DNA of 64,000 nucleotides from Patescibacteria group bacterium (GTDB taxonomy: Bacteria; Patescibacteriota; Patescibacteriia; JAXHNJ01): positions 515,153 to 579,152 of the forward strand of contig JBAZMP010000001.1 of assembly GCA_041649715.1 (NCBI GenBank), in the 5' to 3' direction. Below the pieces are notes generated by a model. It was not told the origin of the DNA and made no database searches. It saw only the letters and a program-made list of their open reading frames with translations. The first letter of the stretch is position 1, and each line of letters opens with the position of its first letter. Shown here piece after piece: positions 12,285 to 57,817 of the stretch. Made by a program: the position numbers and the translations under genes.

Positions 12285-12376
12285 GGCTGACTCCTTTCTT
12301 CTTTCCGTCTCCGGTTTTTCCAAAGATCGGTGAGTGGAGGCCAATGTCAGTCGGGTATTTCCCGAATGACCAATCA

Positions 12377-12405: not shown

Positions 12406-12456
12406 ACCTAATTCCTAACACTGCTATCCCCTACTTTTCCGTTTTTAAGGCAATAA

Positions 12457-12656: not shown

Positions 12657-12662
12657 TATTAA

Positions 12663-12691
12663 ACCTTATCATACCTCGTCTATATTGTCAA
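12663..12691 (-). promoter_or_regulatory. Promoter AATTAGGTCTTGACA-17-TAAGGT
   Basis: Drives the ORF-less unit. Confidence 0.5.
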
Positions 12692-12725
12692 GACCTAATT
12701 CAACGCTACTAAATAAATACAGATA

Positions 12726-12757
12726 AAAAGAAAAAGGACTCGCTAAGAGTCCTTTTA
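12726..12757. terminator. Bidirectional terminator
   Basis: aaaaaggactcgctaagagtcctttt. Confidence 0.7.
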
Positions 12758-12777
12758 TCACGAAATCAGAAAGTACA

Positions 12778-13146: not shown

Positions 13147-13194
13147 CTCTACCTCCTCGTTGTTAATCCCCTTTTAAGAAAAGATCAGCCTAAG

Positions 13195-13223
13195 ATATTA
13201 GCATAAGAATATATCTAAGTCAA
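13195..13223 (-). promoter_or_regulatory. Promoter TTGACT-17-TGc-TAATAT
   Basis: 17-bp spacer, extended -10. Confidence 0.55.
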
Positions 13224-13234
13224 GGCCCAATAAG

Positions 13235-31470: not shown

Positions 31471-31473
31471 AAG

Positions 31474-32700: not shown

Positions 32701-32701
32701 A

Positions 32702-33619
32702 TTATTTTAGCAAATCCTGATAATGACTTTTAACCAAAAGTCTTATGCCACTTGGTTTTATTAAGCCAAATTCCGTGATAAAAGCGGTAATAAACTTGGC
32801 CGGAATATAATCAAAAGCATAGTTTTCCAGTTTTAGACCCCTTGGGGCTTCCGGCCAAATTTCCCGGCTGCTTCTTTTTTCCAAAGGAATACGAATATTA
32901 ACCCGGCTTTTAGGATCTATTTTTAACAGACTGGTCGCCACGTAAACCGGTATCCTTGATTCCCAGGCCGCGAGCGCCAAACCGAAACTGCCGATCTTAT
33001 TCACGGCCCAGCCGTTCAGACCCACCGCATCGGCTCCGATAATCAATTTATTGATCTTGATGTCATCGCCGGAATGATCGCTTATCAAAAAAGCAGCGGC
33101 GGAATCACATACCTGCGACACTTTTATATGATTTTTGATCAAATTTTTTGCGGTTATTCTACCTTGAAAAAGCGGCCGCGTCTCCGAATTATAAACGTGA
33201 AAATTTTTCCCGTCTTTTCTGGCTTTAACCAATATTTTTTCCACCAGCGAAGAATGGCAATGCGTGAAGATATTTTCCCGGCTTTTTATCAATAAAGACC
33301 CCCTTTTTACGATTTTGGCCTCAATTTCTTCATAAGCCTTTATTAGGCGTTCAACCTCGTTGGTTACACTTTTTCGGTCCAGTGATTTTTTTACCCCTAA
33401 CCTTTTTTCTATTATGCCAAACAGGTTAATGACCAGGGGTTCAGTCGGCCTTCGGCATAAAATGCCATTTTTAAAAAGTTTGATCGATTTGATCGTTTCC
33501 GCCGCCCGTTTTTTAAACGGCATTCCTTTTAATGTCAAAAGAGAGGTTAGAGCGATTTGGCTTGCCCCTTGGATTTTTATTTTTTTTAATTCCCTTAATG
33601 TTCTTTTCCACGTTACCAT
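32702..33619 (-). CDS. Ribose-1,5-bisphosphate isomerase (eIF-2B alpha/beta/delta family)
   Basis: e2b2-fold motifs; 1-nt gap to the RuBisCO gene. Confidence 0.7.
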   Translation of the reverse strand: MVTWKRTLRELKKIKIQGASQIALTSLLTLKGMPFKKRAAETIKSIKLFKNGILCRRPTEPLVINLFGIIEKRLGVKKSLDRKSVTNEVERLIKAYEEIEAKIVKRGSLLIKSRENIFTHCHSSLVEKILVKARKDGKNFHVYNSETRPLFQGRITAKNLIKNHIKVSQVCDSAAAFLISDHSGDDIKINKLIIGADAVGLNGWAVNKIGSFGLALAAWESRIPVYVATSLLKIDPKSRVNIRIPLEKRSSREIWPEAPRGLKLENYAFDYIPAKFITAFITEFGLIKPSGIRLLVKSHYQDLLK

Positions 33620-44968: not shown

Positions 44969-46600
44969 TTACTGCTCATGTCCGTTTTCCTCGTTATTTT
45001 CGATCTCTTTTTTCTTCTTGAACAGCCACTGGCGCAAGATGGAAATCTCGTCAAAATGAAAGATAAAAGCGATCGCCAGATAAACCAAGACGCCGACCGC
45101 TCCGGCAACCACGCCTTCCAGCAGAACGCCGACAAAAGTCTGCATATTAAGGCCTAAAACCAGGAATCTCTTGACCAGCCAGATGACGCCGCCCATAAAA
45201 AAAGAGGCTAATAAAATCCTGACCGTCGAATTGATGATTTTTTTGTCATCCAGATCGCCGAATCGGCGGCGCAATACCAAGATAAGAAGCGCCATATTAA
45301 CCAGATTGGAAATAGAAAATGAAAGAGCCAAGCCCAAAATTCCCATATAGCGGCTCAGAATGACAGAACCCAATATATTTATCAGGAGCGAGACAACGCT
45401 TATCTTTACCGGCGTTTTCGTATCCTGGTGGGCGTAAAATGACCGCGCCAGCATCGGAATAAGACTTTGGGCGAAAAGAGAAAGAGAAAAATAACCCAAG
45501 GCTTGAGCGGTCAAATATGTATCCTGCCAGTCAAAAGCGCCGGCCCCCAAGATTACCCGGACGATCTGCGCCCTCAGCAAGATAAACAACACCGAAGCGG
45601 GAATGATTAAGAACAAGACCCGGCGCAGGGTGACAGAAAACTGGACAACAAATTTATCCGTTTCGCGGGCGGCAAAAGCCTCGCTCATCAGGGGAAAAGC
45701 AGCGATGGCCAGGGAAACACCGATAACATTGATCGGGAAACTCTGCAGATTATTCGCCAGGTTAAATACGGCGAGCGAACCGGCCGCTAAAAAAGAAGCG
45801 ATGACCGTGATCACGAGCTGATTTATCTGCCCCACGGCCAGTCCAAAAGTTCGGGGTAAAATCAGGCGGAACATTTTTCTGACGCCGGGATGTTTAAAGT
45901 CAAAAAGCCATTGGTAACGGAAACCGGTTTTCAAAACCGAAGGCACTTGAATGGCTAAATGCAAAAAAGCGCCGACCACAACGCCCCAGGCTAAACCCTC
46001 CACGCCCCACCATTTATAAAAAAGGAGAATTCCGAAAATAATGCCGATGTTGTACATCACCGGCGCGAAGGCAAAGGCCAGAAACTTGCGGAATGAATTC
46101 AGGATACTGCCGAAAATATTGGAGATTCCAAAAATAAAAATGGAAGCCAACATGATCCGCGTCAGATCCACGGTCATGGCCTGTTTGACCGGGGAAAATC
46201 CCGGAGTGATAAGACGCGTAATGGGTGTGGCAAAAATAAAAAAGAACAAACCCAAAACAAGCAATATCAGGCAAATAATGTTTAGAACGGAATTGGCGAT
46301 CCGCCAAGCTTCTTTAGTGCTAAAATTTGCCTCTTTATCCTTTTGCCAGTATTCCAAAAAAACCGGGATAAAAGCGGCCGAAAGTGCCCCTAATACCAAA
46401 ACGTTGAAGATCAAATCCGGCAGGCGGAAAGCCGCGTAATAACTGTCCAAAATGTCCCCCGCCCCAAAGGTAGAGGCGAACAAACGGTCACGTAACAATC
46501 CCAAGAGCCGGGATACAATCGAAGCGAAAGCGATGATAATCGCGCCGCCGGCCACCGTCGTTTGTAATTTATGCCAAATTCTCCTTAACATAATAGCCAA
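44969..46600 (-). CDS. murJ: Lipid II flippase MurJ (MviN)
   Basis: 14 TM, MviN/MOP family profile. Confidence 0.85.
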   Translation of the reverse strand: MAIMLRRIWHKLQTTVAGGAIIIAFASIVSRLLGLLRDRLFASTFGAGDILDSYYAAFRLPDLIFNVLVLGALSAAFIPVFLEYWQKDKEANFSTKEAWRIANSVLNIICLILLVLGLFFFIFATPITRLITPGFSPVKQAMTVDLTRIMLASIFIFGISNIFGSILNSFRKFLAFAFAPVMYNIGIIFGILLFYKWWGVEGLAWGVVVGAFLHLAIQVPSVLKTGFRYQWLFDFKHPGVRKMFRLILPRTFGLAVGQINQLVITVIASFLAAGSLAVFNLANNLQSFPINVIGVSLAIAAFPLMSEAFAARETDKFVVQFSVTLRRVLFLIIPASVLFILLRAQIVRVILGAGAFDWQDTYLTAQALGYFSLSLFAQSLIPMLARSFYAHQDTKTPVKISVVSLLINILGSVILSRYMGILGLALSFSISNLVNMALLILVLRRRFGDLDDKKIINSTVRILLASFFMGGVIWLVKRFLVLGLNMQTFVGVLLEGVVAGAVGVLVYLAIAFIFHFDEISILRQWLFKKKKEIENNEENGHEQ

Positions 46601-47030
46601 ATTTTAGCAGAATTTTGGCTTTTTGACAACTTGCCGTCTTTTTCAAAAATCAGTTTAGGTGGCTTAAAAGAACCATTTTTATGTAAAAACCAATAACCAA
46701 GAAACAAGAGAAAACAATGTCAATATTCAATATTCAATTTTCAAACTGTTAAGCGGCAAAAAGCGTTTGGTTATTGAGATTTGAAATTTAAATATTATTT
46801 GGAATACTTGTATCTTGTCTCTTGTTTCTTAACCAAAAAGCTGCCTATAAGCTTTGTCAATTTGAGAATGACTGTTCAGTAGCTTTGCTCCAGAAACTTT
46901 TGGTCCCTGAAACAAGAGGAGAGAGATTTGCTATTGCCACAGAAATTCTTGATTTTAGGCTTATAGACAGCTTTCTGTCTTCAATATAGAACACTATTGA
47001 AGAATTTGTCAAGAAGGTTTTTTAAAAGAA

Positions 47031-47101
47031 CCTCGTCTTAAGCTTACTAATTAGATAAATAAGCTTGAGAAGAGGGGGAAGACGCAACAAGGGTCTTCCC
47101 C
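47031..47101. repeat. Array element copy (terminal, degenerate): hp1-like ctcgtcttaagctta...taagcttgagaagag plus GC hairpin ggggaagacgcaacaagggtcttcccc
   Basis: Matches the element consensus and lies after the last array gene. Confidence 0.5.
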
Positions 47102-47112
47102 GCGAACAAGAA

Positions 47113-47553
47113 CTATTCATTGGCCGCTTTCAAAAATTCAGCGGCTTTCTGGACCGCACCCAGGGTCACGGTTTCCCACACTTCAACGCCCTTGAAACCG
47201 AGGCGAACCACTTGATAACCAGTTACTTCGCCCGCGTTGATAATCGGAACGTACCCGATCTCACCGCAGAGCTTCACGCGGCCGAGTCGTATTGCTTCCC
47301 GCCAGGGGAAGAATCGATTCTTTGTCCGACCGAGATATCTGTCTAGGATGATGCCGAGGCTGCGACCGCCCCTGTCTTGCAAACTAATCATAAACAAACT
47401 GTACGGCAGACGACCGTTTTCCCGAAAAAAATCCAGCACCGCCAACGAGAGGACGGCTTTATAATTCTGCAGCTCGCCATTGCTGTAGGAATAGACAAGC
47501 AGCACAAGAACGCAGATCACGGCGAGAATAGCGACGACCATCAAAGCGATCAT
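47113..47553 (-). CDS. Array gene: N-terminally TM-anchored hypothetical protein (146 aa)
   Basis: ORF with RBS. Confidence 0.5.
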   Translation of the reverse strand: MIALMVVAILAVICVLVLLVYSYSNGELQNYKAVLSLAVLDFFRENGRLPYSLFMISLQDRGGRSLGIILDRYLGRTKNRFFPWREAIRLGRVKLCGEIGYVPIINAGEVTGYQVVRLGFKGVEVWETVTLGAVQKAAEFLKAANE

Positions 47554-47596
47554 GACATATTACCTCCGAATCAAGTTGTAACGACATAAAGCAGTA

Positions 47597-47785
47597 TTAG
47601 TCGCGAGGCTTCCACTCCCGGTAAAACACGCTGAAGACAATATATGTCAAAAAGCCGGCATAAAAACACAGGATGGCCGCCCAAAGATTGAATCCCTTAA
47701 GCGCCATAAAGGTCTTAACCGCAGAAATTAGGAACAGAAGCAATACCGCAATCGAGAAATACTTTTTACCTGACATTTCAACCAT
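47597..47785 (-). CDS. Array gene: 62-aa two-TM peptide. No element separates it from the next gene, so the two share one cassette.
   Basis: Hydrophobic profile; 44-nt gap to the next gene with a GGAGG RBS. Confidence 0.45.
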   Translation of the reverse strand: MVEMSGKKYFSIAVLLLFLISAVKTFMALKGFNLWAAILCFYAGFLTYIVFSVFYREWKPRD

Positions 47786-47817
47786 CCCCTTTTGATGATG
47801 TTTCTATGTTTTAAAAG

Positions 47818-47897
47818 ATCCGTCTTAAGCCACAAGATTTTCTTATGACTTAGGAGGGACGGGCGCAGAGCAAGAATAAAAACTTGTCCGCGCCCGG
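47818..47897. repeat. Array element copy (degenerate, variant-2 type)
   Basis: tcttaagccacaag...cttatgacttaggag followed by the hairpin gggcgcagagcaag...cttgtccgcgccc. Confidence 0.45.
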
Positions 47898-47913
47898 GAA
47901 AAAAGGGAATGAA

Positions 47914-48333
47914 CTACTCGTTTTCCCAGGGGTGATAGCAGTAGGCAACCACATAGTCACGCAGATGCCAATCGATGTAGACATCATAGCCGTCAAGCCC
48001 CAGGGCGGAAACGTCGGCCAGGCCGATCTCGCTGCCGTGAAAGGTAATCTTGCGATTGCCCTCGGACAGCACCAGGCTGTTTCGCAAATCTTTTTGGTCA
48101 AAACTATCTAGGACCGTTTCGAAAATCGTCCGGCCATCAGACAGTTTCGCCAGCAAATTTGCCGGCAAAATACTGTTGGTCAGACGGTATTCCTCGCAAG
48201 AGGAAAAGACTTGCTCGGCAATCAGCCGACACTCGTCTGCCTCTTTACTGAGGTTCATATTCGCCGCAAGCATGTACGCCAGGCTTAACACGACGATAAT
48301 GATCACGGTAAGAAGGAAAGTCCGGTAAGACAT
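47914..48333 (-). CDS. Array gene: TM-anchored hypothetical protein (139 aa)
   Basis: GGAGG RBS. Confidence 0.5.
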   Translation of the reverse strand: MSYRTFLLTVIIIVVLSLAYMLAANMNLSKEADECRLIAEQVFSSCEEYRLTNSILPANLLAKLSDGRTIFETVLDSFDQKDLRNSLVLSEGNRKITFHGSEIGLADVSALGLDGYDVYIDWHLRDYVVAYCYHPWENE

Positions 48334-48377
48334 TACTAACCTCCGTTCGCTAAGAATGAATGGTTACTTTCAATGAA

Positions 48378-48447
48378 CTCTCTTGAGCCTGCCAATATTA
48401 ATTGCCAGACTCGAGAGAGCGGGCCAAGACTTGAAGTGCCTGGCCCG
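48378..48447. repeat. Array element, variant 1: CTCTCTTGAGCCTGCCAA-tattaa-TTGCCAGACTCGAGAGAG plus hairpin cgggccaagacttgaagtgcctggcccg
   Basis: Imperfect palindrome plus adjacent GC hairpin. Confidence 0.7.
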
Positions 48448-48482
48448 AAGAACAAATCGCGAATACCGAAACATGACATGTC

Positions 48483-48917
48483 TCAGAACTGTTTGGATGA
48501 TTTAGCAACACATTCAACACCGAACATAATCAGCAGACAGACGGGACCAAAGAATAAGAGAGCGGGGGCTGGCGGATATTGACGTGCGATGAGAATAAGA
48601 ACGCCGGCGACGATGATCAGGAATAAGCCGAAGTAGAACCAGTGCCTGCGATGTCTAAGCGGCCGGTACTTACGCACTGCCGCAACGAGTCCCTCAAGCA
48701 ATTTATTGAAGGCTCCGGCCGCGACGAAGATCAGAAAAAACAGCGCCAAAGCGATCATTTCCCGCTCAATAATGAGAAGAAAAACCCCGCCGGCGAAACA
48801 GAGAAAAACAACGACGCACAGAACCCAGGAAAACGGCATGGCCATCACATAATGCATGGCTATCATCGCCATTACCGTGGCAAACAGACCCAGACACAGC
48901 AGAGCAAAGTGTCTCAT
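48483..48917 (-). CDS. Array gene: four-TM membrane protein (144 aa)
   Basis: Hydrophobic profile. Confidence 0.5.
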   Translation of the reverse strand: MRHFALLCLGLFATVMAMIAMHYVMAMPFSWVLCVVVFLCFAGGVFLLIIEREMIALALFFLIFVAAGAFNKLLEGLVAAVRKYRPLRHRRHWFYFGLFLIIVAGVLILIARQYPPAPALLFFGPVCLLIMFGVECVAKSSKQF

Positions 48918-48968
48918 TTTGCTACCTCCGCAAAGTTAGGGGCGACTTTTTATTGACTACTCAATGTA

Positions 48969-49049
48969 CTCTCTTGAGTCTGCCAAACTAGTGTTTGCCA
49001 AACTCGAGAGAATGGAGGAGAAAAAGAGGAAGACCTCTCCTTCTCCTCC
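48969..49049. repeat. Array element, variant 1, plus hairpin ggaggagaaaaagaggaagacctctccttctcctcc
   Basis: CTCTCTTGAGTCTGCCAA-actagtgt-TTGCCAAACTCGAGAGA. Confidence 0.7.
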
Positions 49050-49068
49050 GTATTTACAGAACGACTTC

Positions 49069-49494
49069 TCAGGGAACGGGCGGCGTGCGATCGATCAGCT
49101 GATCGACGTTTCCGTCACCCCCCAAGACGTAAAGAACATAGCCCGAGGCATGGTTCGGATTTTCCGAAGCCGGCTGATACTTCAGGGCGCCGGGCTGGAA
49201 AATCGAAGTACGGTTGTCCCAGTCGCGCGGCTCGCTGTGACGCAGCGTGTAGGGATTAACCAGCTTCTCGCCCTTGGGCAAGAACTGGACCATCTCCCCT
49301 GCGGTCATGGGATACGTGCTGTGCAAACGGTAATAGGCCGAGAGGGCCTTTTCCGTCTGATCGCAGTTCTGCTTGACGACCTTGTCCACGGCCTGGTCGT
49401 AGTGGTTGAGGGCCGGCGGAAGAACGCCGAAGAAAAGAATGACAACGACAGCGATTGCCGCGACGACGATAGTCGACCTCTGAATTCTGGTCAT
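49069..49494 (-). CDS. Array gene: pilin-fold-like protein (GspG/pseudopilin-like C-terminus) with a plain N-terminal anchor lacking a prepilin cleavage motif
   Basis: NPYTL...YVLYVLGGDGNVD resembles the T2SS-G C-terminal region; no G/F-xxxE motif. Confidence 0.4.
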   Translation of the reverse strand: MTRIQRSTIVVAAIAVVVILFFGVLPPALNHYDQAVDKVVKQNCDQTEKALSAYYRLHSTYPMTAGEMVQFLPKGEKLVNPYTLRHSEPRDWDNRTSIFQPGALKYQPASENPNHASGYVLYVLGGDGNVDQLIDRTPPVP

Positions 49495-49544
49495 CTGGAC
49501 CTCCTCTAACCAGGTTAAGTGAAACTTCGTAACACTCTGCCTTA

Positions 49545-49670
49545 TTTAGCAATTGGCAGCGGCATGATTATTAGCATATGACATATGGCTTATAGCTTAG
49601 AGATAAATTGCTTATCGCAAACCATAAGCCATAAGCTATGTGCCAACTAACAACCAACCCGCTGCCAACC
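49545..49670. mobile_element. Small IR-bounded insert (MITE-like, about 125 bp)
   Basis: Terminal IR aattggcagcggc / gccgctgccaacc; internal IR catatggcttatagc / ataagccataagctatg. Confidence 0.35.
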
Positions 49671-49684
49671 TTTTTGTAATGTGC

Positions 49685-49750
49685 TCTCTTGAGCCTGCCA
49701 ATTTTACTTGCCAGACTCAAGGGAAGGAGAGAAGCGGCTTGCCTCTCTCC
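49685..49750. repeat. Array element, variant 1, plus hairpin ggagagaagcggcttgcctctctcc
   Basis: CTCTCTTGAGCCTGCCAA-ttttac-TTGCCAGACTCAAGGGA. Confidence 0.7.
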
Positions 49751-49762
49751 GATGAATTAGCG

Positions 49763-50110
49763 TTACTTGATAAAGAGCGTGGAAGCTCGTGGCGCGGTCC
49801 GACAACGCATGTAGACGACTTCCGTCACCTTGACTTCCGCTCCATAAAGAATGTTTCGGTACGGGACGACGAACACGGTAAAAAGACAGCGATCACTCCA
49901 TCTCATGACCACGACGACTCCCATATCAAGACCCACCAAGTGTTGTACGTCGCTGAAAGTCGTAAATGAATCATCGGAAGAAAAGTCAGAAACTCTCATA
50001 TGTTTCTGCTCCTGGAGCTGCTTTTGAAGCTCTTCTCCCGTCCGCTGGTGTTTACAACCCGCCGAAAGCGTCAAAACAGCCGCCAGCAGGACAAACAACA
50101 TAGTTCTCAT
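49763..50110 (-). CDS. Array gene: lipoprotein (115 aa)
   Basis: Lipobox LSAGC; GGGAGG RBS. Confidence 0.5.
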   Translation of the reverse strand: MRTMLFVLLAAVLTLSAGCKHQRTGEELQKQLQEQKHMRVSDFSSDDSFTTFSDVQHLVGLDMGVVVVMRWSDRCLFTVFVVPYRNILYGAEVKVTEVVYMRCRTAPRASTLFIK

Positions 50111-50175
50111 CAGGAAACCTCCCTTTCGCTTGAAAGACTTCAAGTATTTACTACTACTCTTAAATTCGCAACGAG

Positions 50176-50245
50176 CTCGCTTGAGCCTGCCAAACTATTA
50201 TTTGTCAGACTCGAGTGAATGGGCCAAACCGAGGAGGTCTGGCCC
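50176..50245. repeat. Array element, variant 1, plus hairpin gggccaaaccgaggaggtctggccc
   Basis: CTCGCTTGAGCCTGCCAA-actattat-TTGTCAGACTCGAGTGA. Confidence 0.7.
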
Positions 50246-50267
50246 AAGGAGCGAAGGTGAAAGAGTC

Positions 50268-50534
50268 TCAGCCTTTAACGGCATGAAACTCTCCCTCATA
50301 TACGAAATAGCGACGAACACACTTCTTGCATTCCAGATAATCAACGGCAACGACTGATTGTGATCCGGTAAATGAATTCTTCATAGCCAGATCACACTTA
50401 GACTCGCGCCAATCCGGACGATGAATACCGGAGCTGGTAATGTGGATCGTGGTCTTGAAAAGGCGTTGCATAATCATCGAAACAACGACCCCCACTATTA
50501 CCAACAAAATAGCAACCAACGCGAACTCTTTCAT
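50268..50534 (-). CDS. Array gene: TM-anchored small protein (about 88 aa)
   Basis: AAGGAGG RBS before MKEFALV. Confidence 0.5.
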   Translation of the reverse strand: MKEFALVAILLVIVGVVVSMIMQRLFKTTIHITSSGIHRPDWRESKCDLAMKNSFTGSQSVVAVDYLECKKCVRRYFVYEGEFHAVKG

Positions 50535-50583
50535 TTCTATCCTCCTTAGAGAGATAAACTCCAGATTTCGATTATTCAATGTG

Positions 50584-50659
50584 CTCTCTTAAATAAACCA
50601 ACAACATTTGATTTACTAAAGAGATGAGGGAACGCACTTCCTATTAAGAAGGGTTCCCT
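50584..50659. repeat. Array element (degenerate hp1) plus hairpin gagggaacgcacttcctattaagaagggttccctc
   Basis: ctctcttaaataaaccaa...ttgatttactaaagagatgag. Confidence 0.5.
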
Positions 50660-50670
50660 CGGTTGTGCGA

Positions 50671-51060
50671 TTATTTCAGGACGATCACGGCCGAGAGGAT
50701 CCATTCCTCGTAGCCTTCGCCTTCCCCAGAACATCTGGTAAAGGCGACGATGGTCCCATTCTTCCCGTTGACCAGGGCGTAGACCACCGGATTATCGAGC
50801 TTCCCGTCATAGAGAAGACCGGCGCTGTCGTAGACTCGGACAGTGGAGCTGTCGTCGATGTACGAAGTTCCGTCGTAGAAAATCTCGATGGTTCTGGATC
50901 GCTCGTAGGCCGGCTTTTCCGACTTCATGGTAATCTCGCCGGTGCCACCCCAGATGTGCTTGTCGACTTTGATGTTGACCGGGGGCCCGGCGAAGCTGTT
51001 GCTGCCCGCGAACGGAAGCATGACCACGAGGATCATGATAACGAGCATGAACTTTTTCAC
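50671..51060 (-). CDS. Array gene: secreted protein; probable GTG start giving MKKFMLVIM
   Basis: Signal peptide; GGAG RBS 7 nt before the GTG. Confidence 0.45.
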   Translation of the reverse strand: MKKFMLVIMILVVMLPFAGSNSFAGPPVNIKVDKHIWGGTGEITMKSEKPAYERSRTIEIFYDGTSYIDDSSTVRVYDSAGLLYDGKLDNPVVYALVNGKNGTIVAFTRCSGEGEGYEEWILSAVIVLK

Positions 51061-51130
51061 GCTTGGCTCCTTTCGGTAAAACTGATCTTCTGCCATCTTA
51101 GGCTGGCAGACGCCCTTACTAGTCAAAGAA

Positions 51131-51199
51131 CTCCCTCTTAAGCCAACCAGAGATGCCTGATTGACTTGAGAGAGAGGGACGTTTTTTAGGAAACGTCCC
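51131..51199. repeat. Array element, variant 2: CTCTTAAGCCAACCA-gagatgcc-TGATTGACTTGAGAG plus hairpin gggacgttttttaggaaacgtccc
   Basis: Lies inside a roughly 105-nt block nearly identical to 52715-52830. Confidence 0.7.
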
Positions 51200-51312
51200 G
51201 CGTATTTCAGTTCACGGCCCGCCAGCCGGTGGTTTTTTAAGGTGGTGTCACATCTCCACCGGACTAGGCATGACTTATTCCACTCCCCTCTTTTATAAGA
51301 TATCAGCGACGG

Positions 51313-51753
51313 TCAGGCCTGACGCTTAATCCACCAAGCGGACAGGAAGAATACGATCGCAAATAGTCCGGAAATACACGCCAGAAATATGAATGAATAA
51401 CGCTCCCACCGGAATACCGCAATCAAGGAAATCAAACAGATAAACGCTTCGACTATCCCGAAGAGGCACTGCCGTGTCGGCAAATCTTGCTTGGCCTTGC
51501 TGAAAATGCCGGCAATCATCCCAAAGATTCCCAACAAGAAAAAGAGAATCGTCATGATGATGCCCAAGAAGGCAAAAAACAGCCACTCGAGAATGTCGCG
51601 CTCGACGTAGACGATCACGACACCTCCTCCGACGATTAGAACTCCAATCGTCAGAAGCCAGGGATCGAACCCAGGCATGTAGTGCAGGACCACGACGCCG
51701 CACGTGATCGCCACAATCCCGAGAACAAAGATAATGATGCTTTTCATCACCAA
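51313..51753 (-). CDS. Array gene: four-TM membrane protein, paralog A
   Basis: Shares VVVLxxMxGFDPWLLxIGVL with 52873..53328. Confidence 0.55.
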   Translation of the reverse strand: MVMKSIIIFVLGIVAITCGVVVLHYMPGFDPWLLTIGVLIVGGGVVIVYVERDILEWLFFAFLGIIMTILFFLLGIFGMIAGIFSKAKQDLPTRQCLFGIVEAFICLISLIAVFRWERYSFIFLACISGLFAIVFFLSAWWIKRQA

Positions 51754-51790
51754 CCTCCAGGTTTATAGCCTTTTTGATTCAAAGATCTAA

Positions 51791-51857
51791 CTCTCTTAAG
51801 CCAACCAATGTTTGATTGACTTGAGAGAATGGAGGGACCCACGGGGTGGATCCCTCC
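51791..51857. repeat. Array element, variant 2, plus hairpin ggagggacccacggggtggatccctcc
   Basis: CTCTCTTAAGCCAACCAA-tgtt-TGATTGACTTGAGAGA. Confidence 0.7.
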
Positions 51858-51873
51858 GGAACGAACGTAGTGG

Positions 51874-52443
51874 CTAGGCCGCTGCCCCCACCTTCTGGCG
51901 CGCCTCCTGCGGATAGTAGACGCGCAGGTCCCGGCTGCCGATGTTGGCGAGATTCGCGATGTCAGCGCAGTGGTAAAAGCCCACAGCCCTGGCCGCAGTC
52001 CGGGAGAGAATGACGATCCGACCATCGGTCAGAGCGGCATCCATGAAGGCGGCACCGGCGGTCTTGAGCACGCAGCAGGTAAGCTCCTTGTCGCGGAGCT
52101 CGAGAACGCTGCCCGTGTGGACACCTTCGCCGTCGATCCAGCACACTTGCCCTTTGGGAAGCGGCGGGAACGGCACGGCGAGGAGCGCCTTCACCCTCGC
52201 GACGATCTGTTCGTCGGAAAGCCAGCCTTCCGGCTTAGGCGGCAACGTTCTGACGTTGCGGGCCTGCGGTTTCCCATCGAGGGCGTTGATCGGTTCGAAG
52301 ACGACCTCCTCCCCGATCTTCCAGTACTGCCGGCAGCTCGACGCGATGGCCCAGTTGGGCACATAGCGGTCGACGCCATTTTCGTCGGTGATGAAGGAAT
52401 ACACGGCGCCGATTGACTTGACCTTACCATTCATCTGAGACAT
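51874..52443 (-). CDS. Array gene: protein with N-terminal cold-shock-domain-like segment plus about 130-aa extension
   Basis: MSQMNGKVKSIGAVYSFITDENGVDRYV compared with the CspA pattern GxVKWFNxxKGFGFITxxxGxDVFV; AAGGAGG RBS. Confidence 0.45.
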   Translation of the reverse strand: MSQMNGKVKSIGAVYSFITDENGVDRYVPNWAIASSCRQYWKIGEEVVFEPINALDGKPQARNVRTLPPKPEGWLSDEQIVARVKALLAVPFPPLPKGQVCWIDGEGVHTGSVLELRDKELTCCVLKTAGAAFMDAALTDGRIVILSRTAARAVGFYHCADIANLANIGSRDLRVYYPQEARQKVGAAA

Positions 52444-52495
52444 GAGAGACCTCCTTTTCCGAAGCACCTTGGAACACTGTGACTTCTTTCTTGAG

Positions 52496-52660
52496 CCACC
52501 TCACTGGAGGTGAGGCTAAATTGGGAGCTTTCATTAGAAAATGAAAGGCCTGAAAGGATAATCGAGTGAATGACTTAGTAGACCAAGCCAGACGCTTAAA
52601 TTATCCTCAATCGATTGTCCCCGTTAGAAATTTATTTCTAATGGGATGTCTCACCCTCCA
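52496..52660. mobile_element. MITE copy A (about 165 bp), hairpin-ended, with a 28-bp palindromic internal insert
   Basis: Ends gccacctcactggaggtgagg / tcaccctccatggaggtggc; the internal about 75 nt is identical to copy B. Confidence 0.6.
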
Positions 52661-52693
52661 TGGAGGTGGCTAAGAAAAATTTTAGTCAAAGAA

Positions 52694-52761
52694 CTCTCTC
52701 TTAAGCCAACCAATTTACTTGATTGACTTGAGAGAGAGGGACGTTTTTTAGGAAACGTCCC
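52694..52761. repeat. Array element, variant 2, plus hairpin gggacgttttttaggaaacgtccc
   Basis: CTCTCTCTTAAGCCAACCAA-tttact-TGATTGACTTGAGAGAGAG. Confidence 0.7.
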
Positions 52762-52872
52762 GCGTATTTCAGTTCACGGCCCGCCGGCCGGTGGTTTTTT
52801 AAGGTGGTGTCACATCTCCACCGAACTAGTCTTAGTCATTAACACCCCTCTTTTGCAGATTTTGGCGCCGGA

Positions 52873-53328
52873 TTATACCCGTGACATCCGGCGGTTGTTC
52901 CTCCTGCCGATGGTCAGGCAATACAGAGCGACCAGGGCGAAGGGCACTCCAAGGATGAAAATGATGGTATAGAGCGGGTGCCCCCAGTACAGAAGGCCGA
53001 CTGTGATGTCGTATAGGCCGATCAGACCATATGTCCAACTGAAGATTCGCCAATTGCTGTCCAGGAAGCGTCTGACTGGCCGCGACCAGGCGACCATTTT
53101 CTCCATGCCTTTCAAGAGGACATAGAGGATCGCGAAGATGATGCCGAGAAAGATAAAGAAATCCTCCTCAAGAACATCGCTCACAGCGTAAGTCAGGCTG
53201 ACACCACCGGCGATGCAGAGGACTCCGATCACCAGAAGCCAGGGATCGAACCCCGACATATGGCGCAGGACGACGACGCCGACCACGATCGCGATCATAC
53301 CCATAACGAACAGCATGTTGTTCCGCAT
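52873..53328 (-). CDS. Array gene: four-TM membrane protein, paralog B
   Basis: Paralog of 51313..51753; GGAGG RBS. Confidence 0.55.
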   Translation of the reverse strand: MRNNMLFVMGMIAIVVGVVVLRHMSGFDPWLLVIGVLCIAGGVSLTYAVSDVLEEDFFIFLGIIFAILYVLLKGMEKMVAWSRPVRRFLDSNWRIFSWTYGLIGLYDITVGLLYWGHPLYTIIFILGVPFALVALYCLTIGRRNNRRMSRV

Positions 53329-53631
53329 TACAAACCTCCATTAGAGTTAGATGACTAGTTTCGTTTGAAAAATCAAAGTGCTTTATCATTTTCTGAAAGC
53401 ACTAATCTATTAATGCTTTCGGAAAAGTCAGGGAGGCCGATGAAACGCATTTCATCAAAACCTCCCTGGATAGTTTTACCCATCTCGGGTCACCCCGGAT
53501 GGAACCCAGCCGCCCATTTGTTGGCCGGGGTTGAGGCTAGAGTGTTCGCAGGAGGCGAAGCACCCATAGCCCGTGATGGACCAGGTTTTTCACCTGTCCA
53601 CCTCCTTTCTTTTATGATTTAAAGAGCTTCG

Positions 53632-53781
53632 CTAGCTGATCACGATGCAGCAGGAAATCCCGAGAATCCCCAGCACCGTAGGCACAAAGCCAAGCGCCGG
53701 ATGGCCGGAATGCATAATCGCCTTCCCCGCGATAAAGCATAGCAGGGAAACGACGAGTAACGGGCCAAGGTGCTTTTTCAT
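53632..53781 (-). CDS. Unannotated 49-aa two-TM membrane peptide (MKKHLGPLLVVSLLCFIAGKAIMHSGHPALGFVPTVLGILGISCCIVIS)
   Basis: GGAGGGAAGAA RBS with ideal spacing; below the 60-aa ORF-track cutoff; a more plausible reading than the overlapping 53612..53800 ORF. Confidence 0.5.
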   Translation of the reverse strand: MKKHLGPLLVVSLLCFIAGKAIMHSGHPALGFVPTVLGILGISCCIVIS

Positions 53782-53824
53782 TTCTTCCCTCCGAGTTCAA
53801 GACGTATAACGTATAAAGATCGTT

Positions 53825-53904
53825 CCTCTCTTGAAAGTCCTAAATCTTTAAGGCTTTTAAGAGAGGGCTCGGCAAAGAAGGTAGAACAAGTTGATGACCG
53901 AGCC
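53825..53904. repeat. Array element (divergent) plus hairpin gctcggcaaagaaggtagaacaagttgatgaccgagcc
   Basis: cctctcttgaaagtcc-taaatctttaa-ggcttttaagagagg. Confidence 0.55.
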
Positions 53905-53961
53905 TTTTAACGAGCGGATTTTGAGGTGGGATACCGGTTAGGGTGACCGGTGGCGGGAAAA

Positions 53962-54576
53962 TCAGGCAAAGACCATCATTCTTTGGCGGTATTCTATCCG
54001 AAGCATGAAGGCAACCACCAGAAGAGTCGTAACTGTCGCCCGAGTGGCATAGAGAACGGCTAGACTGTCGCCGTCAATCAGGGCCGGATAGAGGGCGATG
54101 AGCATTGCGATGCCCGTTCCGATCCAGACTGAGAACGGCTCGGTGTTTTTTGGCGACGTCCACAAATGCTGGAGGGTAGCGATGTAACCGATGACCACCA
54201 GCAGCTGAGTGAGAACGTTCGACCAGGAGGCCTGGCGGAACATCATCCAGAATAGGATGATTCCCGCGGCCGCAACAAGCGTGCCTTTCTGAAACCGGCT
54301 GAAAGCCAGCTTCAGTTCTCCGTCACGGTATCTCGTCCAGAGGACGAAGAAACAAATGACAGAGGTATTGAGAACGCCAGTCGCGTTGCCGACGTTGCCG
54401 GTCCAGCTGTGAACCGGCGAACGCATGTAGGTGATAAAACCGAGGATCATCGTCAAGCTGATAATAATCCAGGTCGCCGGCACAGGATGCTTGGCCCGGG
54501 TGTTAATCAGATAGCAGTATCTGATAGTCACACCGAACATGATCAAAGCGACGAGAATAACCGACAGTTCTCTCAT
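53962..54576 (-). CDS. Array gene: multi-TM membrane protein (about 204 aa)
   Basis: GAGGTG RBS before MRELSVIL; 5-6 TM. Confidence 0.5.
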   Translation of the reverse strand: MRELSVILVALIMFGVTIRYCYLINTRAKHPVPATWIIISLTMILGFITYMRSPVHSWTGNVGNATGVLNTSVICFFVLWTRYRDGELKLAFSRFQKGTLVAAAGIILFWMMFRQASWSNVLTQLLVVIGYIATLQHLWTSPKNTEPFSVWIGTGIAMLIALYPALIDGDSLAVLYATRATVTTLLVVAFMLRIEYRQRMMVFA

Positions 54577-54805
54577 TTCACACCTCAACTTTTTTAATTC
54601 AATGTGCATTGAAATTCTGGTGGCGGCGAGGGAGTTTAACCCTACTTTTTCAAGTCCCGATCGCCTTGCTAGGCAGGACTTCTCATCCTCTTTTTGTCGG
54701 GACGCCGCCTTTTTCAAACTAATGAATCTTGATCATAAGCTTGAAAAAGGTGAAGAGTCAGATAGTCCGTACTAACTGACTCTTCGCGCGTAGGAACCCT
54801 TGGCT

Positions 54806-55054
54806 TCAGAGACTCAGTCTCTTTTTGCCCTTGTTGTAGCCGGCGACTTGCTTCATCGCCTTGATTTTCTCCAGGAACGAAAGCCGCGGGTCTTTCGGCA
54901 CCAGATCCGTGTTGCCGAGAACATAGATAACGGCCGAAAGAAAATCCTCCAACGTAATCTCGTAGTCGCCGAGATATACGACCTGAGGACCGAAACCATC
55001 GGTCTTAACCGATAGTCCCTCCGGCTTGCTTCCCTGATTTAGGATCAAACTCAT
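54806..55054 (-). CDS. Array gene: small soluble hypothetical protein (about 83 aa)
   Basis: GGGAGG RBS before MSLILNQG. Confidence 0.45.
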   Translation of the reverse strand: MSLILNQGSKPEGLSVKTDGFGPQVVYLGDYEITLEDFLSAVIYVLGNTDLVPKDPRLSFLEKIKAMKQVAGYNKGKKRLSL

Positions 55055-55100
55055 GATTTTCCTCCCTTCAGCATGTGTTATTCTGTCCGATGTAAGGTGC

Positions 55101-55168
55101 TCGCTTGAGCCAACCAAGGACAAGCTTTGATTGACTTAAGTGAGGGAGGGATCCAGGGGGATCCCTCC
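55101..55168. repeat. Array element, variant 2, plus hairpin gggagggatccagggggatccctcc
   Basis: CTCGCTTGAGCCAACCAA-ggacaagct-TTGATTGACTTAAGTGAG. Confidence 0.7.
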
Positions 55169-55190
55169 GTTGTTTTGGACTTTCGTCCGG

Positions 55191-55772
55191 TTAGAACGAG
55201 CAGATGAGCGCGAACCAGCGTTCATTGGTGTCCCCGAGTTTGAACGCGGCGCACAGTCTGGCCGAGCTGAAGGGCCCGACCTTGCCGAGTTCGACGAATG
55301 GGCCGACCCGCGGGTTCAGAGCCTCATCACCGTTCTTGGTGAGATGGCCGATCAGACCGACGGGGAAAGTTCCGCACGTGATCCATTCCCGAAGCAACAG
55401 GAAATTCGGCGCGCCGTGCTGTCCAAACTGCATCAGATCATAGCTCTGCCAGTGTATCGGACCGAAATCCAGGCCGAAGCTTGCGTCGAAGTTCACGTAC
55501 ATGACGCCGATCTTGTCGCCGCCGATATCGCCGAAGCTCAAGCCAGATCCGAACTGGAACGGACCGATCTTGGGTCCGACCGAGAAAGCGACCTCGGTCC
55601 CCGGCGTCGTCCAGATATTGCATCCGAGACGGGGAATGAAAAGAGAGTCTCTGCCCGCGCAACCGAACAGGTTGCCCGTCGGGTAGAACTCGACCGAGGC
55701 GTAGGAACCGGCCAAGCAGACCGCCGGAACCATGAGGATCAGGATAAGCGTGATGAGCATGAACGACTTCAT
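55191..55772 (-). CDS. Array gene: secreted Gly-rich protein (about 193 aa)
   Basis: Signal peptide MKSFMLITLILILMVPAVCLA; AGGAGG RBS. Confidence 0.5.
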   Translation of the reverse strand: MKSFMLITLILILMVPAVCLAGSYASVEFYPTGNLFGCAGRDSLFIPRLGCNIWTTPGTEVAFSVGPKIGPFQFGSGLSFGDIGGDKIGVMYVNFDASFGLDFGPIHWQSYDLMQFGQHGAPNFLLLREWITCGTFPVGLIGHLTKNGDEALNPRVGPFVELGKVGPFSSARLCAAFKLGDTNERWFALICSF

Positions 55773-55819
55773 CGCGAACCTCCTTAAGGCTACAGAGTTT
55801 GGGAACACCCTTCTTCTTC

Positions 55820-55964
55820 GCCACCTCACTGGAGGTGAGGCTAATATGGCAACTTCCACTAGAAAGTGAAAGGCCTGAAAGGATAATCGAGTGAATGACT
55901 TAGTAGACCAAGCCAGACGCTTAAATTATCCTCAATCGATTGTCTCACCCTCCATGGAGGTGGC
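55820..55964. mobile_element. MITE copy B (about 145 bp)
   Basis: Same hairpin ends and internal sequence as copy A. Confidence 0.6.
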
Positions 55965-55995
55965 GAAAAAATGTATAAATGTAAAGGACTTTTTT

Positions 55996-56063
55996 CTCGC
56001 TTGAGCCTGTCAATCTTTTGTTGGCAGACTCGAGTGAGGGGCCAAGACTTAGGAAGCTTGGCC
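55996..56063. repeat. Array element, variant 1, plus hairpin ggggccaagacttaggaagcttggccc
   Basis: CTCGCTTGAGCCTGTCAA-tcttttg-TTGGCAGACTCGAGTGAG. Confidence 0.7.
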
Positions 56064-56085
56064 CAGAAATCTTCTGGAACGAACG

Positions 56086-56430
56086 CTAGCCTCTAAACAC
56101 GTGGAAGTAAGCTTGGTTCACATCAGGAAGAAGCGCTCTGAACACGACTTCATCGTGACGGATGATCTGAATCGCCACAATGGAACAATTATCGATGTTC
56201 AGTATCACCTCTTCGCCTACGTCGACCCTTGGCAGACCGTCAGCCGGAATCACATATCCCTTGCCGTTAACCTTTAGGCTAAGGACGCTATGGAAGCCAG
56301 ACGAAGGCTCGTGCAAGTCCAAGCTTGCTTCTTCTACGACACCGCGTATGACCGTTTCTGTGACAGGTTCACGCTCTTCATACCCAATCTCGCCCATTCT
56401 GTAAACTCTAGTTACTTCCGATATCTTCAT
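56086..56430 (-). CDS. Array gene: small soluble hypothetical protein (about 114 aa)
   Basis: AAGGAG RBS before MKISEVT. Confidence 0.45.
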   Translation of the reverse strand: MKISEVTRVYRMGEIGYEEREPVTETVIRGVVEEASLDLHEPSSGFHSVLSLKVNGKGYVIPADGLPRVDVGEEVILNIDNCSIVAIQIIRHDEVVFRALLPDVNQAYFHVFRG

Positions 56431-56464
56431 CGCCTGCTCCTTTATATAAAGATCTCCTTCCAAA

Positions 56465-56523
56465 GCACTAGTACTTTACTAATGCCTTCGAGAGAGAGGG
56501 CCAAGCCACGAAGGCTTGACCCG
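56465..56523. repeat. Array element (left arm degenerate) plus hairpin gggccaagccacgaaggcttgaccc
   Basis: ...CCTTCGAGAGAGA plus a GC hairpin. Confidence 0.45.
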
Positions 56524-56553
56524 TATGTACGAACGGCGGAAACGCCGGTGTCG

Positions 56554-56781
56554 CTAGATATGCCTGGTAACAAAACGACCCACCAGAGCGATGACGAACC
56601 AGATCGCGAGACAGAAAACGACGTAACCGATCAAGGCGATCGCGATGGCCCCGTAAAAGGCCGGGATCACGATGAGCAAGCGCAGAATGTCGTTTCCGTT
56701 CACGAACTGGATCTTGAGGATCTGGGGGCCGAGAAGAGCGAATAGAATACAGATAATGGTAATCACGATAAACCACTTCAT
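56554..56781 (-). CDS. Array gene: 75-aa two-TM peptide (first gene of the array)
   Basis: GGAGG RBS; hydrophobic profile. Confidence 0.5.
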   Translation of the reverse strand: MKWFIVITIICILFALLGPQILKIQFVNGNDILRLLIVIPAFYGAIAIALIGYVVFCLAIWFVIALVGRFVTRHI

Positions 56782-56814
56782 TTCTGACCTCCGTTTTTTA
56801 TGACCTTCTCAAAG

Positions 56815-56891
56815 ATCTCCTTCTAAGACACTAACCATTGGCTAATGTCCTTGAGAGAGAGGGCAACCATCCGACAGAGTCGTGGTTGCCC
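56815..56891. repeat. Array element (degenerate, upstream of the first gene) plus hairpin gggcaaccatccgacagagtcgtggttgccc
   Basis: ...TCCTTGAGAGAGAG plus a GC hairpin. Confidence 0.45.
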
Positions 56892-57817
56892 AGGCTATCA
56901 CTCATCATTCGCTATGCGATAACTTGATATGATAGAAGGAACGATATGAAAGAGCGAAATTATCGCCAGGTGAATATTTTCATTCATGAATCCACGGGGG
57001 ATTCAATATGAAGACGCTTGCTATTGTCAGGACAATCAAGCGGAGGTGAGATTAAAAGTGGTATCTTCTCAAGCTTTCGCAAAGAGAAGGCCTAAAGGCG
57101 AAGCGCTTGGAGAGGTCGAGTGAAACCCAACCTCGCAAGCCTCTACGCCCAAATAATATCTTTCTCACCCTCCCCTTGACTGTTCTGAAATATTTTTATT
57201 TTGTCGAAGGACTGATGCGGGAGAAGAGGAGGCACTAAGGCCTCCTCCCCTACCGTCTGCTCTGTAAGATCTTACAGAGGAAGTTGGAAGCTAAATTTTC
57301 ATTACCGACCAACTTCCTCTTTACGATCCTTACGAAAAAAGACCCTTCCACATTTGAGAGAGTCTATTCAATCGATTTATAAACAAAACATATGTCTATA
57401 AATCACCGATTCAAAAAATCGGTACTCTCTCCTCATATTAAGTTGTCAAAGTCTCCTCTCCTTTAAGACCTTGTTCTCTCTCCTATTTCTAGCTTGACAC
57501 CTCACTATATAGGGGGGTGGTTTTCTTGTCAAGGGGGGTTATCCCCACCTCTGGCAATTTTGACCTAATCTTAGGTAAAATTAATTCTAAAAAATATCCT
57601 TAAATATTAATTTTTGACGGTTTTTGACCTATTTTTTGCCGCAAAAAAAACAGCCATTTTTAGCCTTTTGTGGATAACTGGCAAAACTCAAACAAACGGG
57701 AGTTTTGCCACCCTGAGCGAAGTCTCGCTAAGCGGGACAAGCGAAGGGTCTTACATTAAAATATATTGCCCCGTGTTTGCGAATGGATCCCGAATAAGAC
57801 AGAGAGTCTAGTCGATT

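Follow-up and report, generated by a model that had tools for sequence, protein, structure and literature searches.

Analysis of a 64-kb stretch of DNA from a Patescibacteria group bacterium (referred to below as the window) revealed an array of 17 small genes at positions 47031 to 56891, in which the genes are separated by copies of a conserved element composed of two abutting hairpins. Patescibacteria (candidate phyla radiation [CPR] bacteria) are mostly uncultured episymbionts whose host attachment and surface variation are poorly understood. The array is positioned between a DUF4012 gene (57818-59980) and murJ (44969-46591). The window maps within a 382-kb Patescibacteria metagenome-assembled contig (ENA ERZ27247363 k141_3042223), and 6.5 kb of it was found again, 100% identical, in a second sample.

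All 17 genes lie on the minus strand (47113-56781) and encode proteins of 49 to 204 amino acids (aa), which bears out an earlier description of this DNA made from its letters alone (the sequence-only reading). The same description had noted that the array is richer in G+C than its surroundings. The G+C content is 0.509 in the array and 0.444 in the remaining window, and the values at third codon positions (GC3) are 0.68 and 0.54 for array genes and flanking genes, respectively. A crude hydropathy scan placed N-terminal or multiple hydrophobic segments in 14 of the 17 products. This agrees with the envelope bias that had been proposed, as do the lipobox of g12 and the pilin-like products of g13 and g15; the cold-shock domain of g8 was recovered as well. 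Searches of Pfam, NCBIfam, PADLOC and PHROGs assigned no array protein to a family with significance, and the only matches were a weak one to GspG (g13) and a sub-threshold one to TMEM187 (g7). Among 5.8 billion proteins, g3 has one homologue besides itself. One family of proteins with four transmembrane (TM) segments is represented three times inside the window, by g7, g9, and g14; the g7 and g9 proteins are 55% identical. The genes are as follows.

g1, 56554-56781, minus strand: 75 aa, three hydrophobic segments by crude hydropathy scan
g2, 56086-56430, minus strand: 114 aa, soluble, without family match
g3, 55191-55772, minus strand: 193 aa, signal peptide
g4, 54806-55054, minus strand: 82 aa, soluble
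g5, 53962-54576, minus strand: 204 aa, multi-pass membrane protein
g6, 53632-53781, minus strand: 49 aa, two hydrophobic segments
g7, 52873-53328, minus strand: 151 aa, 4-TM family, paralogue of g9 and g14
g8, 51874-52443, minus strand: 189 aa, N-terminal cold-shock domain and a C-terminal part without assignment
g9, 51313-51747, minus strand: 144 aa, 4-TM family
g10, 50671-51048, minus strand: 125 aa, signal peptide; the C-terminus of a homologue is seen in the related locus L091
g11, 50268-50534, minus strand: 88 aa, TM-anchored
g12, 49763-50110, minus strand: 115 aa, lipoprotein signal/lipobox (LSAGC)
g13, 49069-49494, minus strand: 141 aa, type IV pilin/pseudopilin-like
g14, 48483-48917, minus strand: 144 aa, multi-TM, distant paralogue of g7 and g9
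g15, 47914-48333, minus strand: 139 aa, pilin-like; shares 44% identity with the final array gene of the related locus L004
g16, 47597-47785, minus strand: 62 aa, two TM segments
g17, 47113-47553, minus strand: 146 aa, TM-anchored

Two unusually long gaps contain additional predicted structure without an Rfam match: an extended hairpin of about 110 nt between g12 and g13 (49530-49670, minus strand; UUGGCAGCGG...CCGCUGCCAA) and a GC-rich stretch of about 200 nt between g6 and g7 (53329-53631, minus strand).

The intergenic double-hairpin element

A first covariance model was built from the intergenic copies of the window and searched across the 64 kb. Exactly 17 full-length matches were obtained, all on the minus strand (47024-56868), with scores of 36.7 to 63.8 bits and E values of 1e-14 to 2e-7; the best match outside the array reached 14.7 bits (E value, 0.15). 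A broader model derived from 33 copies of nine loci returned the same 17 matches in the window and nothing more. The element is thus not scattered over the ordinary intergenic regions of these 64 kb. With the end copies at 56816-56891 and 47031-47101, both where the sequence-only reading had placed them, the array has N+1 copies for its element-bounded units (17 copies, 16 units). Genes g16 and g17 share one unit, and the model finds no copy in the gap between them (47554-47596), in line with the exception that had been reported at 47553-47597. The following positions rest on the covariance-model matches together with the fold geometry.

E0, 56816-56891, minus strand: before g1; hairpin 1 at 56891-56861, hairpin 2 at 56860-56816
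E1, 56453-56522, minus strand: element, between g1 and g2
E2, 55996-56064, minus strand: element, after g2
E3, 55100-55168, minus strand: element, between g3 and g4
E4, 54708-54785, minus strand: divergent copy, 36.7 bits
E5, 53825-53904, minus strand: element, between g5 and g6
E6, 53389-53467, minus strand: divergent copy
E7, 52694-52761, minus strand: element, after g7; near-identical to the E9 region
E8, 51790-51857, minus strand: element, between g8 and g9
E9, 51131-51199, minus strand: element, between g9 and g10
E10, 50585-50660, minus strand: element, 81% identical to L091 72-157
E11, 50176-50246, minus strand: element, between g11 and g12
E12, 49684-49750, minus strand: element, between g12 and g13
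E13, 48968-49049, minus strand: element, between g13 and g14
E14, 48377-48447, minus strand: element, top-scoring copy
E15, 47818-47896, minus strand: element, of the type of the terminal element of L004 and L008
E16, 47031-47101, minus strand: element, after the last gene, g17

Exact-pattern scans for the element gave one chance match in GTDB species genomes and none in JGI metagenome contigs or viral contigs; the pattern was too strict for diverged copies. Related loci were instead retrieved through MurJ homologues, and nine distinct related loci were available in all (ten identifiers, with L092 identical to L008). Eight distinct loci carry the bipartite element between small same-strand genes, at the following levels of MurJ identity to the window.

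L004 and L008: 88%, element present
L007, L086, and L087: 71 to 73%, element present
L005: 66%, element present
L089 and L090: 62 to 63%, element present

The array lies between DUF4012 and murJ wherever both flanks are visible (L007, L086, and L090), and in every genome compared the element is confined to one locus and one strand. In L009 (56% MurJ identity), DUF4012 and murJ are 3 nt apart and there is no array. In 874 kb surrounding more distant murJ genes, the element was absent save for one 88% relative.

On the coding strand, a copy of about 70 to 85 nt consists of hairpin 1 followed by hairpin 2 with a gap of 0±1 nt. Hairpin 1 (24 to 39 nt) is GC-rich and lacks a U-tract; its sequence varies between copies, with a purine-rich 5' arm and a pyrimidine-rich 3' arm. 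Hairpin 2 (38 to 46 nt, about 44 nt as a rule) is conserved. Its base is formed by CUCUCUC/GAGAGAG with a C·A mismatch at the seventh base pair, and above it an upper stem of 10 to 12 pairs varies in sequence while the pairing is kept. The whole stem comprises 16 to 19 bp with a 1x1 internal mismatch. The loop has 3 to 9 nt. A YCNUUG tail follows the hairpin, and about half of the copies have a U-rich tail (UUCUUUG or UCUUUU) at this place. The distance from the stop codon to hairpin 1 is 10 to 35 nt in 12 of 16 cases, and the next start codon follows hairpin 2 by 22 to 250 nt. Across 15 modelled pairs and 33 copies, 94.1% of the hairpin 2 cells are standard pairs, compared with 72% after shuffling and 28 to 54% when the partners are slid; compensatory changes on both sides were seen in 14 of the 15 pairs. 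Rfam 15 offered no counterpart: in the window, the gathering score was reached by three tRNAs and nothing else, and between 46500 and 58000 the matches at E values of ≤5 were chance microRNA and U7 matches far below the cutoffs.

The structure is strand specific. Minimum-energy folds of the coding strand (35 copies, seven loci) contain 106 G·U pairs and 27 A·C single mismatches, most of which are the one conserved C·A; hairpin 1 has 27 G·U pairs and no A·C mismatch. In 31 of the 35 copies, the sense strand gives the more stable fold, with a mean advantage over the complement of 6.2 kcal/mol (Wilcoxon P value, 1e-5). Structures selected on the transcribed strand usually show such a G·U excess and such folding energies. 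According to GC skew, the sense strand at the array is the probable lagging-strand template.

Consensus scans revealed no promoter-like site with at least 10 of 12 matches inside the array, and no terminator of the hairpin-plus-U-tract type on its coding strand (0 of 17 elements flagged). Strong minus-strand promoter-like sites were found only at its two ends.

57504-57532, minus strand: promoter-like site upstream of the array, TTGACA-17-TATAGT, 11/12 matches; counterpart in the same position in L007 and L086
46983-47012, minus strand: promoter-like site directly after the array, TTGACA-18-TATATT, 11/12 matches; conserved in relatives

These sites suggest that the array is probably cotranscribed from the 57.5-kb end, in line with the sequence-only reading, and a single long transcript with the elements as punctuation would be the simplest reading. 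Two conventional roles of the element itself were considered and rejected. The conserved TCTTTGA after hairpin 2 resembled, with its TTGA, a -35 box, and no -10 box follows at 16 to 18 nt; several start codons, moreover, lie only 22 to 35 nt from hairpin 2. As a Rho-independent terminator the element fails because hairpin 1 is followed by CUCUCUC, not by a U-tract. In L089, a hairpin 2 without hairpin 1 occurs downstream of an internal consensus promoter, and it would therefore sit in a 5' untranslated region (UTR).

Exchange of genes between related loci

Comparison with the relatives showed that the arrays are not syntenic. At 62 to 88% MurJ identity, their gene content is almost wholly different, and the only families shared across arrays are pilin-like proteins and cold-shock-domain proteins; the 4-TM family is internal to the window. 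Pilin-like proteins comprise g13 and g15, a canonical type IV prepilin in L086, and the products of pilin-like genes in L087 and L004, and their profile matches GspG in the Protein Data Bank (PDB) with an E value of 1e-6. L087 also has a prepilin peptidase. One element-bounded unit of L007 (3096-3983) consists of a P-loop-like gene for 191 aa that overlaps a Csx3-like gene (PF09620, 23.1 bits), so the cargo of the arrays extends beyond envelope proteins.

Three comparisons located the junctions. Between L004 and L008, 85 to 87% identity extends over murJ and over the sequence that starts about 10 nt ahead of hairpin 1, and the genes just upstream of this point are unrelated. The window contains one unit more than L004: g16-g17-E16 stands between the E15-type element and the downstream promoter, which is conserved. 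L091 has the C-terminal end of a g10 homologue, followed by an element that shares 81% identity with E10, by a leader motif (described below), and by a homologue of g3 with 72% amino acid identity. Behind these come a different element and then a cold-shock/zinc-ribbon gene. The window shows another arrangement, with g3 located 5 kb upstream of g10 and flanked by other genes. The homology between L091 and the window switches no more than about 7 nt away from the 3' end of hairpin 2, and the two g3 genes share leader and coding sequence and neither the upstream nor the downstream element. Break-points thus flank the element, some 5' of hairpin 1 and others 3' of hairpin 2, in the few comparisons available. 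As shown by comparison of these sequences, the elements mark recombination junctions at which genes have been replaced, deleted, duplicated, and re-ordered between relatives.

Near-identical blocks of 110 to 137 nt recur within the array. The 3' UTR and element after g7 (E7) and after g9 (E9) are 98% identical over 110 nt, and two copies of the leader motif in the window are 94% identical over 125 nt. This near-identity indicates that conversion or duplication took place recently, and it makes long repeats available to homologous recombination. Since the same sequence stands at every gene boundary and is accompanied by such blocks, the elements also act as recombination break-points; two-sided break-points and a gene that is parted from its downstream element fit homology-driven exchange better than an enzyme with one crossover site. 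The repeated 3' UTR contains a conserved block (GGUGGAGAUGUGACACCACC UUAAAAAAC CACCGGC...) that precedes E7, E9, and one L007 element, downstream of unrelated genes.

51200-51312 and 52762-52872, minus strand, and L007 4978-5060: conserved 3' UTR block

On the opposite (plus) strand, the block contains a canonical hairpin-plus-T-run terminator at 51219-51232 and 52777-52794.

Known recombination sites and enzymes were sought as well. A regular-expression scan of the elements ±25 nt on both strands found the R''/R' boxes of attC (RYYYAAC/GTTRRRY) in 0 of 17 copies, in agreement with the earlier statement that the element is not a canonical attC. The upper stem of hairpin 2 was also considered as a dif-like Xer site (11-6-11), a reading that was rejected: the arms and the spacer, which measures 3 to 9 nt, vary and covary between copies and do not preserve a single binding sequence. 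No recombinase gene was found inside the array, as had been stated before, or beside it. The only recombinase found in the window lies 40 kb away (5748-6725); it matches XerC (203 bits) and XerD (191 bits) over the full length, and the integron-integrase model partially, with 70 bits against a cutoff of 265. IntI was not found among the window open reading frames (ORFs) scanned, and no gene for a transposase of the repetitive extragenic palindrome (REP)-associated tyrosine type (RAYT, Y1/HUH) or of another type was detected either in the Pfam scan of about 56 window ORFs or in the genes called between 39 and 59 kb; these scans are not exhaustive and could miss a Y1/HUH gene. The recombinase search that had been proposed was thus run on window ORFs and left only the XerC/D-type enzyme. 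Its gene (plus strand) adjoins a second GC-rich stretch of small ORFs ("island 1," 8000-13500), which is without any element copy. The remaining window ORFs scanned are housekeeping or envelope genes. At 29968-33619, genes for a form II/III-type RuBisCO large subunit, an AMP-phosphorylase-like protein, and an IF-2B-family isomerase are adjacent; we take them to be the nucleoside-salvage trio typical of CPR bacteria, which supports the assignment to Patescibacteria.

Accompanying RNAs and the cold-shock-domain protein

Two further RNA motifs, neither of which has an Rfam match, accompany the arrays.

56892-57497, minus strand: untranslated leader with GA-rich boxes at about 57485-57430, 72% identical to L007 2283-2679; leader of about 700 nt downstream of the promoter-like site
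56990-57190, minus strand: leader motif copy 1, at the start of the array
55800-55990, minus strand: leader motif copy 2, upstream of g3
52470-52690, minus strand: leader motif copy 3, upstream of g8
L007 2283-2440 and 5120-5320; L086 3960-4100 and 4870-5020; L091 150-400: leader motif in relatives
46830-46978, minus strand: conserved small RNA of about 150 nt; long terminal helix, exposed CU-rich box (AAAUCUCUCUCCUCUUG), intrinsic terminator
Window 46830-47012; L004 616-800; L008 591-780; L007 6203-6400; L086 6522-6712; L087 2088-2275; L005 5473-5680: small RNA homologues including the promoter

The leader motif comprises about 130 to 200 nt, with GGAGGGUGA, a GGUCU(G)ACU hairpin, UUUAGGCC, and CUCACCUCC as conserved parts and with compensatory changes. 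Its 3' part can form an alternative hairpin (CCUCACC/GGUGAGG) that looks like the expression platform of a riboswitch. Stretches resembling the T-arm and acceptor stem of a tRNA (GGUUCGAUUCC / GGGUUCGACUCCC) were noted in the leader or array regions of L086 (4120-4200) and L005 (1990-2060); ARAGORN called neither of them as tRNA or tmRNA.

The conserved promoter and small RNA directly follow the array in all seven cases in which the 3' end was examined (window, L004, L005, L007, L008, L086, and L087). The terminal helix formed by the 5' and 3' ends of the small RNA shows compensatory changes, and AAAUCUCUCUCCUCUUG is invariant and located in an apical loop. This box is complementary to the GA-rich boxes of the array leader over 10 nt in the window and over 12 nt in L007 and L086, and partly complementary to the 3' arm of hairpin 2. 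The small RNA may act in trans as a partner of the array transcript. L004 (980-1438) and L008 (about 900-1330), both on the minus strand, contain a reverse-oriented gene of the 23S_rRNA_IVP family (four-helix bundle) in the interval from the small RNA to murJ, and this gene is absent from the window.

A cold-shock-domain protein is the most conserved protein component of the arrays. It is encoded in four of them, by g8, L007 5361-6086, L086 5660-6346, and L091 1197-1647, and the domain profile matches cold-shock proteins in the PDB with an E value of 5.5e-7. The proteins of L007, L086, and L091 carry a zinc-ribbon-like C-terminal fusion. BLASTP (E value of ≤1e-4) found no homologue in the arrays of L005, L089, and L090, which are partial or diverged.

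Interpretation and comparison with known systems

The element is best explained as a bipartite RNA module that punctuates the transcript of a hypervariable, type IV pilin-associated surface locus in one Patescibacteria lineage and doubles as a recombination break-point, an explanation that we consider probable, if only narrowly so. An intercistronic role in RNA processing, stability, or attenuation is the most likely function to be inferred from the strand-specific structural selection, the position of the element, the absence of promoters and terminators, and the RNA-related partners. The module would act co- or posttranscriptionally between cistrons. Cleavage or pausing at the junction of hairpin 1 and hairpin 2 would leave hairpin 1 to shield the 3' end of the upstream cistron, and hairpin 2 would provide a structured 5' end for the downstream one. 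Protection of the one end and structuring of the other would allow, as we propose, the independent expression and decay of many small genes. The cold-shock-domain protein, the GA-rich leader, and the CU-rich small RNA would be candidate partners.

Several points weigh against this explanation. Cotranscription, cleavage, pausing, and an effect on stability are all steps that we infer. The covariation alignment was fitted to the model, which flatters the pairing figure of 94.1%, although the contrast to the controls is still large, and the copies of one genome or array are not independent observations. The nine related loci are mostly short metagenome contigs, and the searches for the element and for recombinases covered 64 kb, or about 17% of the 382-kb contig. 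The strand bias favors RNA and leaves room for folding as single-stranded DNA, because G·T pairs also form there and the sense strand is probably the lagging-strand template. Finally, the conserved part of the element spans about 10 to 20 nt at the hairpin base, a short length for recombination of the RecA type, and break-points at both element edges would also fit a structure-specific nuclease.

The elements might instead be conditional attenuators, in which the paired hairpins pause or terminate RNA polymerase and the cold-shock-domain protein melts them as an RNA chaperone, creating a gradient of polarity. CspA-family cold-shock proteins are known transcription antiterminators, and the recurrence of the cold-shock-domain gene with its own conserved leader in the window, L007, L086, and L091 would suit this role, as would the position of the elements close behind stop codons and the U-rich tail of about half of them. 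We nevertheless judge it unlikely: none of the 17 copies meets the simple hairpin-plus-U-tract definition, C and U residues rather than U residues alone follow hairpin 1, and the arrays of L005, L089, and L090, partial or diverged as they are, gave no BLASTP homologue of the cold-shock-domain protein. The organism does use canonical terminators, since the adjoining small RNA has one.

A somewhat more doubtful alternative sees the elements as structure-specific recombination sites in single-stranded DNA, whose hairpin feet are cut by a recombinase or HUH nuclease encoded elsewhere that moves the gene units, integron-like in logic only. It would account for the N+1 layout, the uniform orientation, and the promoterless small ORFan genes, for an upper stem that keeps structure and not sequence, and for the replacement and re-ordering of genes with junctions at element edges. 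The GC3 of the array and the G+C content of the L005 array (0.46, compared with 0.37 in its flank) suggest imported genes, and the folded strand would be the lagging-strand template. The junctions, however, fall on both sides of the element and not at one nucleotide, a gene was transferred without its downstream element, and the strong G·U enrichment, 27 to 0 in hairpin 1, is the usual mark of RNA. The locus is, moreover, identical in three independent assemblies of the same strain, the attC boxes are missing, and the 64-kb ORFs scanned contain no IntI, HUH, or transposase gene and only the distant Xer-type enzyme. Of the earlier proposal that the element is a boundary or recombination site, the gene-boundary signal confined to the locus and the break-points at element edges therefore stand, whereas a DNA recombination site of the integron or REP/RAYT type is not supported. 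We are just as hesitant about a new gene-cassette platform, that is, a functional analogue of the integron with unrelated sites and an unrelated enzyme that would diversify surface and pilin-associated proteins of the episymbiont. In such a platform, a structure-specific nuclease or recombinase encoded at another place in the genome would bind the folded double hairpin on the lagging-strand template, cut at its feet, and swap gene units from element to element and from genome to genome.

Functionless selfish repeats of the REP type, of the related bacterial interspersed mosaic element (BIME) type, or of the miniature inverted-repeat transposable element (MITE) type, multiplied in the intergenic spaces of an operon, are highly improbable: short palindromic intergenic repeats and the near-identical E7 and E9 would fit them, but the element keeps to one locus and one strand in every genome compared, is retained at 62 to 100% MurJ identity while the intervening genes are replaced, and shows neither target-site duplications nor a RAYT or transposase gene in the ORFs scanned, and the preserved structure of the sequence-variable hairpin 1, together with the covariation of hairpin 2, indicates selection at each site rather than copy-and-paste, so that a MITE or REP was rejected on distribution and per-site covariation.

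With the element read as an RNA module, the locus would represent a compact conserved RNA architecture (promoter, structured leader, double-hairpin element, cold-shock-domain protein, and flanking small RNA) around almost freely exchangeable genes for small envelope and pilin-like proteins. It includes three RNA motifs without an Rfam entry and offers a concrete model for the expression of many tiny genes from one transcript. The element model may serve as a marker for hypervariable surface loci in metagenomes.

The sequence-only reading had likened the arrangement to integron cassette arrays or REP/RAYT-type arrays, a parallel that is not supported in view of the lack of core boxes, the presence of two hairpins, the selection on the transcribed strand, and the two-sided break-points. 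The array does resemble an integron or a cluster of attC sites lacking integron-integrases (CALIN) in that promoterless small genes of unknown function and the same orientation are each parted by a folded imperfect palindrome, in that structure is conserved above sequence, and in that gene content differs between relatives. It differs from both in lacking the R''/R' boxes; IntI was not found either, although a CALIN does not require it. An attC site is a single imperfect hairpin and recombines via its bottom strand, whereas two hairpins abut here and their structure is favored on the coding (top) strand. An integron cassette combines an ORF with its own downstream site and has a fixed crossover, whereas the array genes are parted from the downstream element and no fixed crossover is apparent. 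With REPs and BIMEs the element shares the nature of an intergenic palindromic repeat, which in those systems can stabilize upstream mRNA and promote rearrangements. REPs, however, occur genome-wide in both orientations with a conserved 5' tetranucleotide and a RAYT gene, none of which was seen here in the 64 kb and the ORFs scanned.

Closer parallels exist among intercistronic hairpins. RNase III hairpins lie between the early genes of phage T7. In Escherichia coli operons, protective 3' structures and structured 5' ends reshape the stoichiometry of the operon (PMC5927463). Common to these systems and the array are conserved intercistronic hairpins on what would be one long transcript, where the upstream message would end in a hairpin and the downstream one would start with a structured 5' end, and the stem of hairpin 2, about 20 bp with an internal mismatch, would be a plausible substrate for a double-strand-specific RNase. 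The CUCUCUC/GAGAGAG base, the C·A mismatch, and the YCNUUG tail match no described site, however, and the element differs further in being tied to one hypervariable locus, where it marks recombination junctions.

This last property is shared with the promoter-early stem-loop (PeSL) cassettes in the hyperplastic regions of T4-type phages (PMC2839356, PMC4122927). In both cases, a short conserved stem-loop regulatory motif lies between small, mostly ORFan genes of a hypervariable region, junctions of insertion, deletion, or replacement fall at the motifs (here in L004 versus L008, the window versus L004, and the window versus L091), and the motif itself gives the homology without a dedicated recombinase. 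A PeSL combines a terminator stem-loop with a strong sigma-70 early promoter, whereas the element described here has neither promoter nor terminator signature, is built of two abutting hairpins, and resides in a bacterial chromosome, not in a phage. The array would thus be a case, on a bacterial chromosome, of regulatory motifs that also serve as scaffolds for recombination, which until now has been described mainly in T4-type phages.

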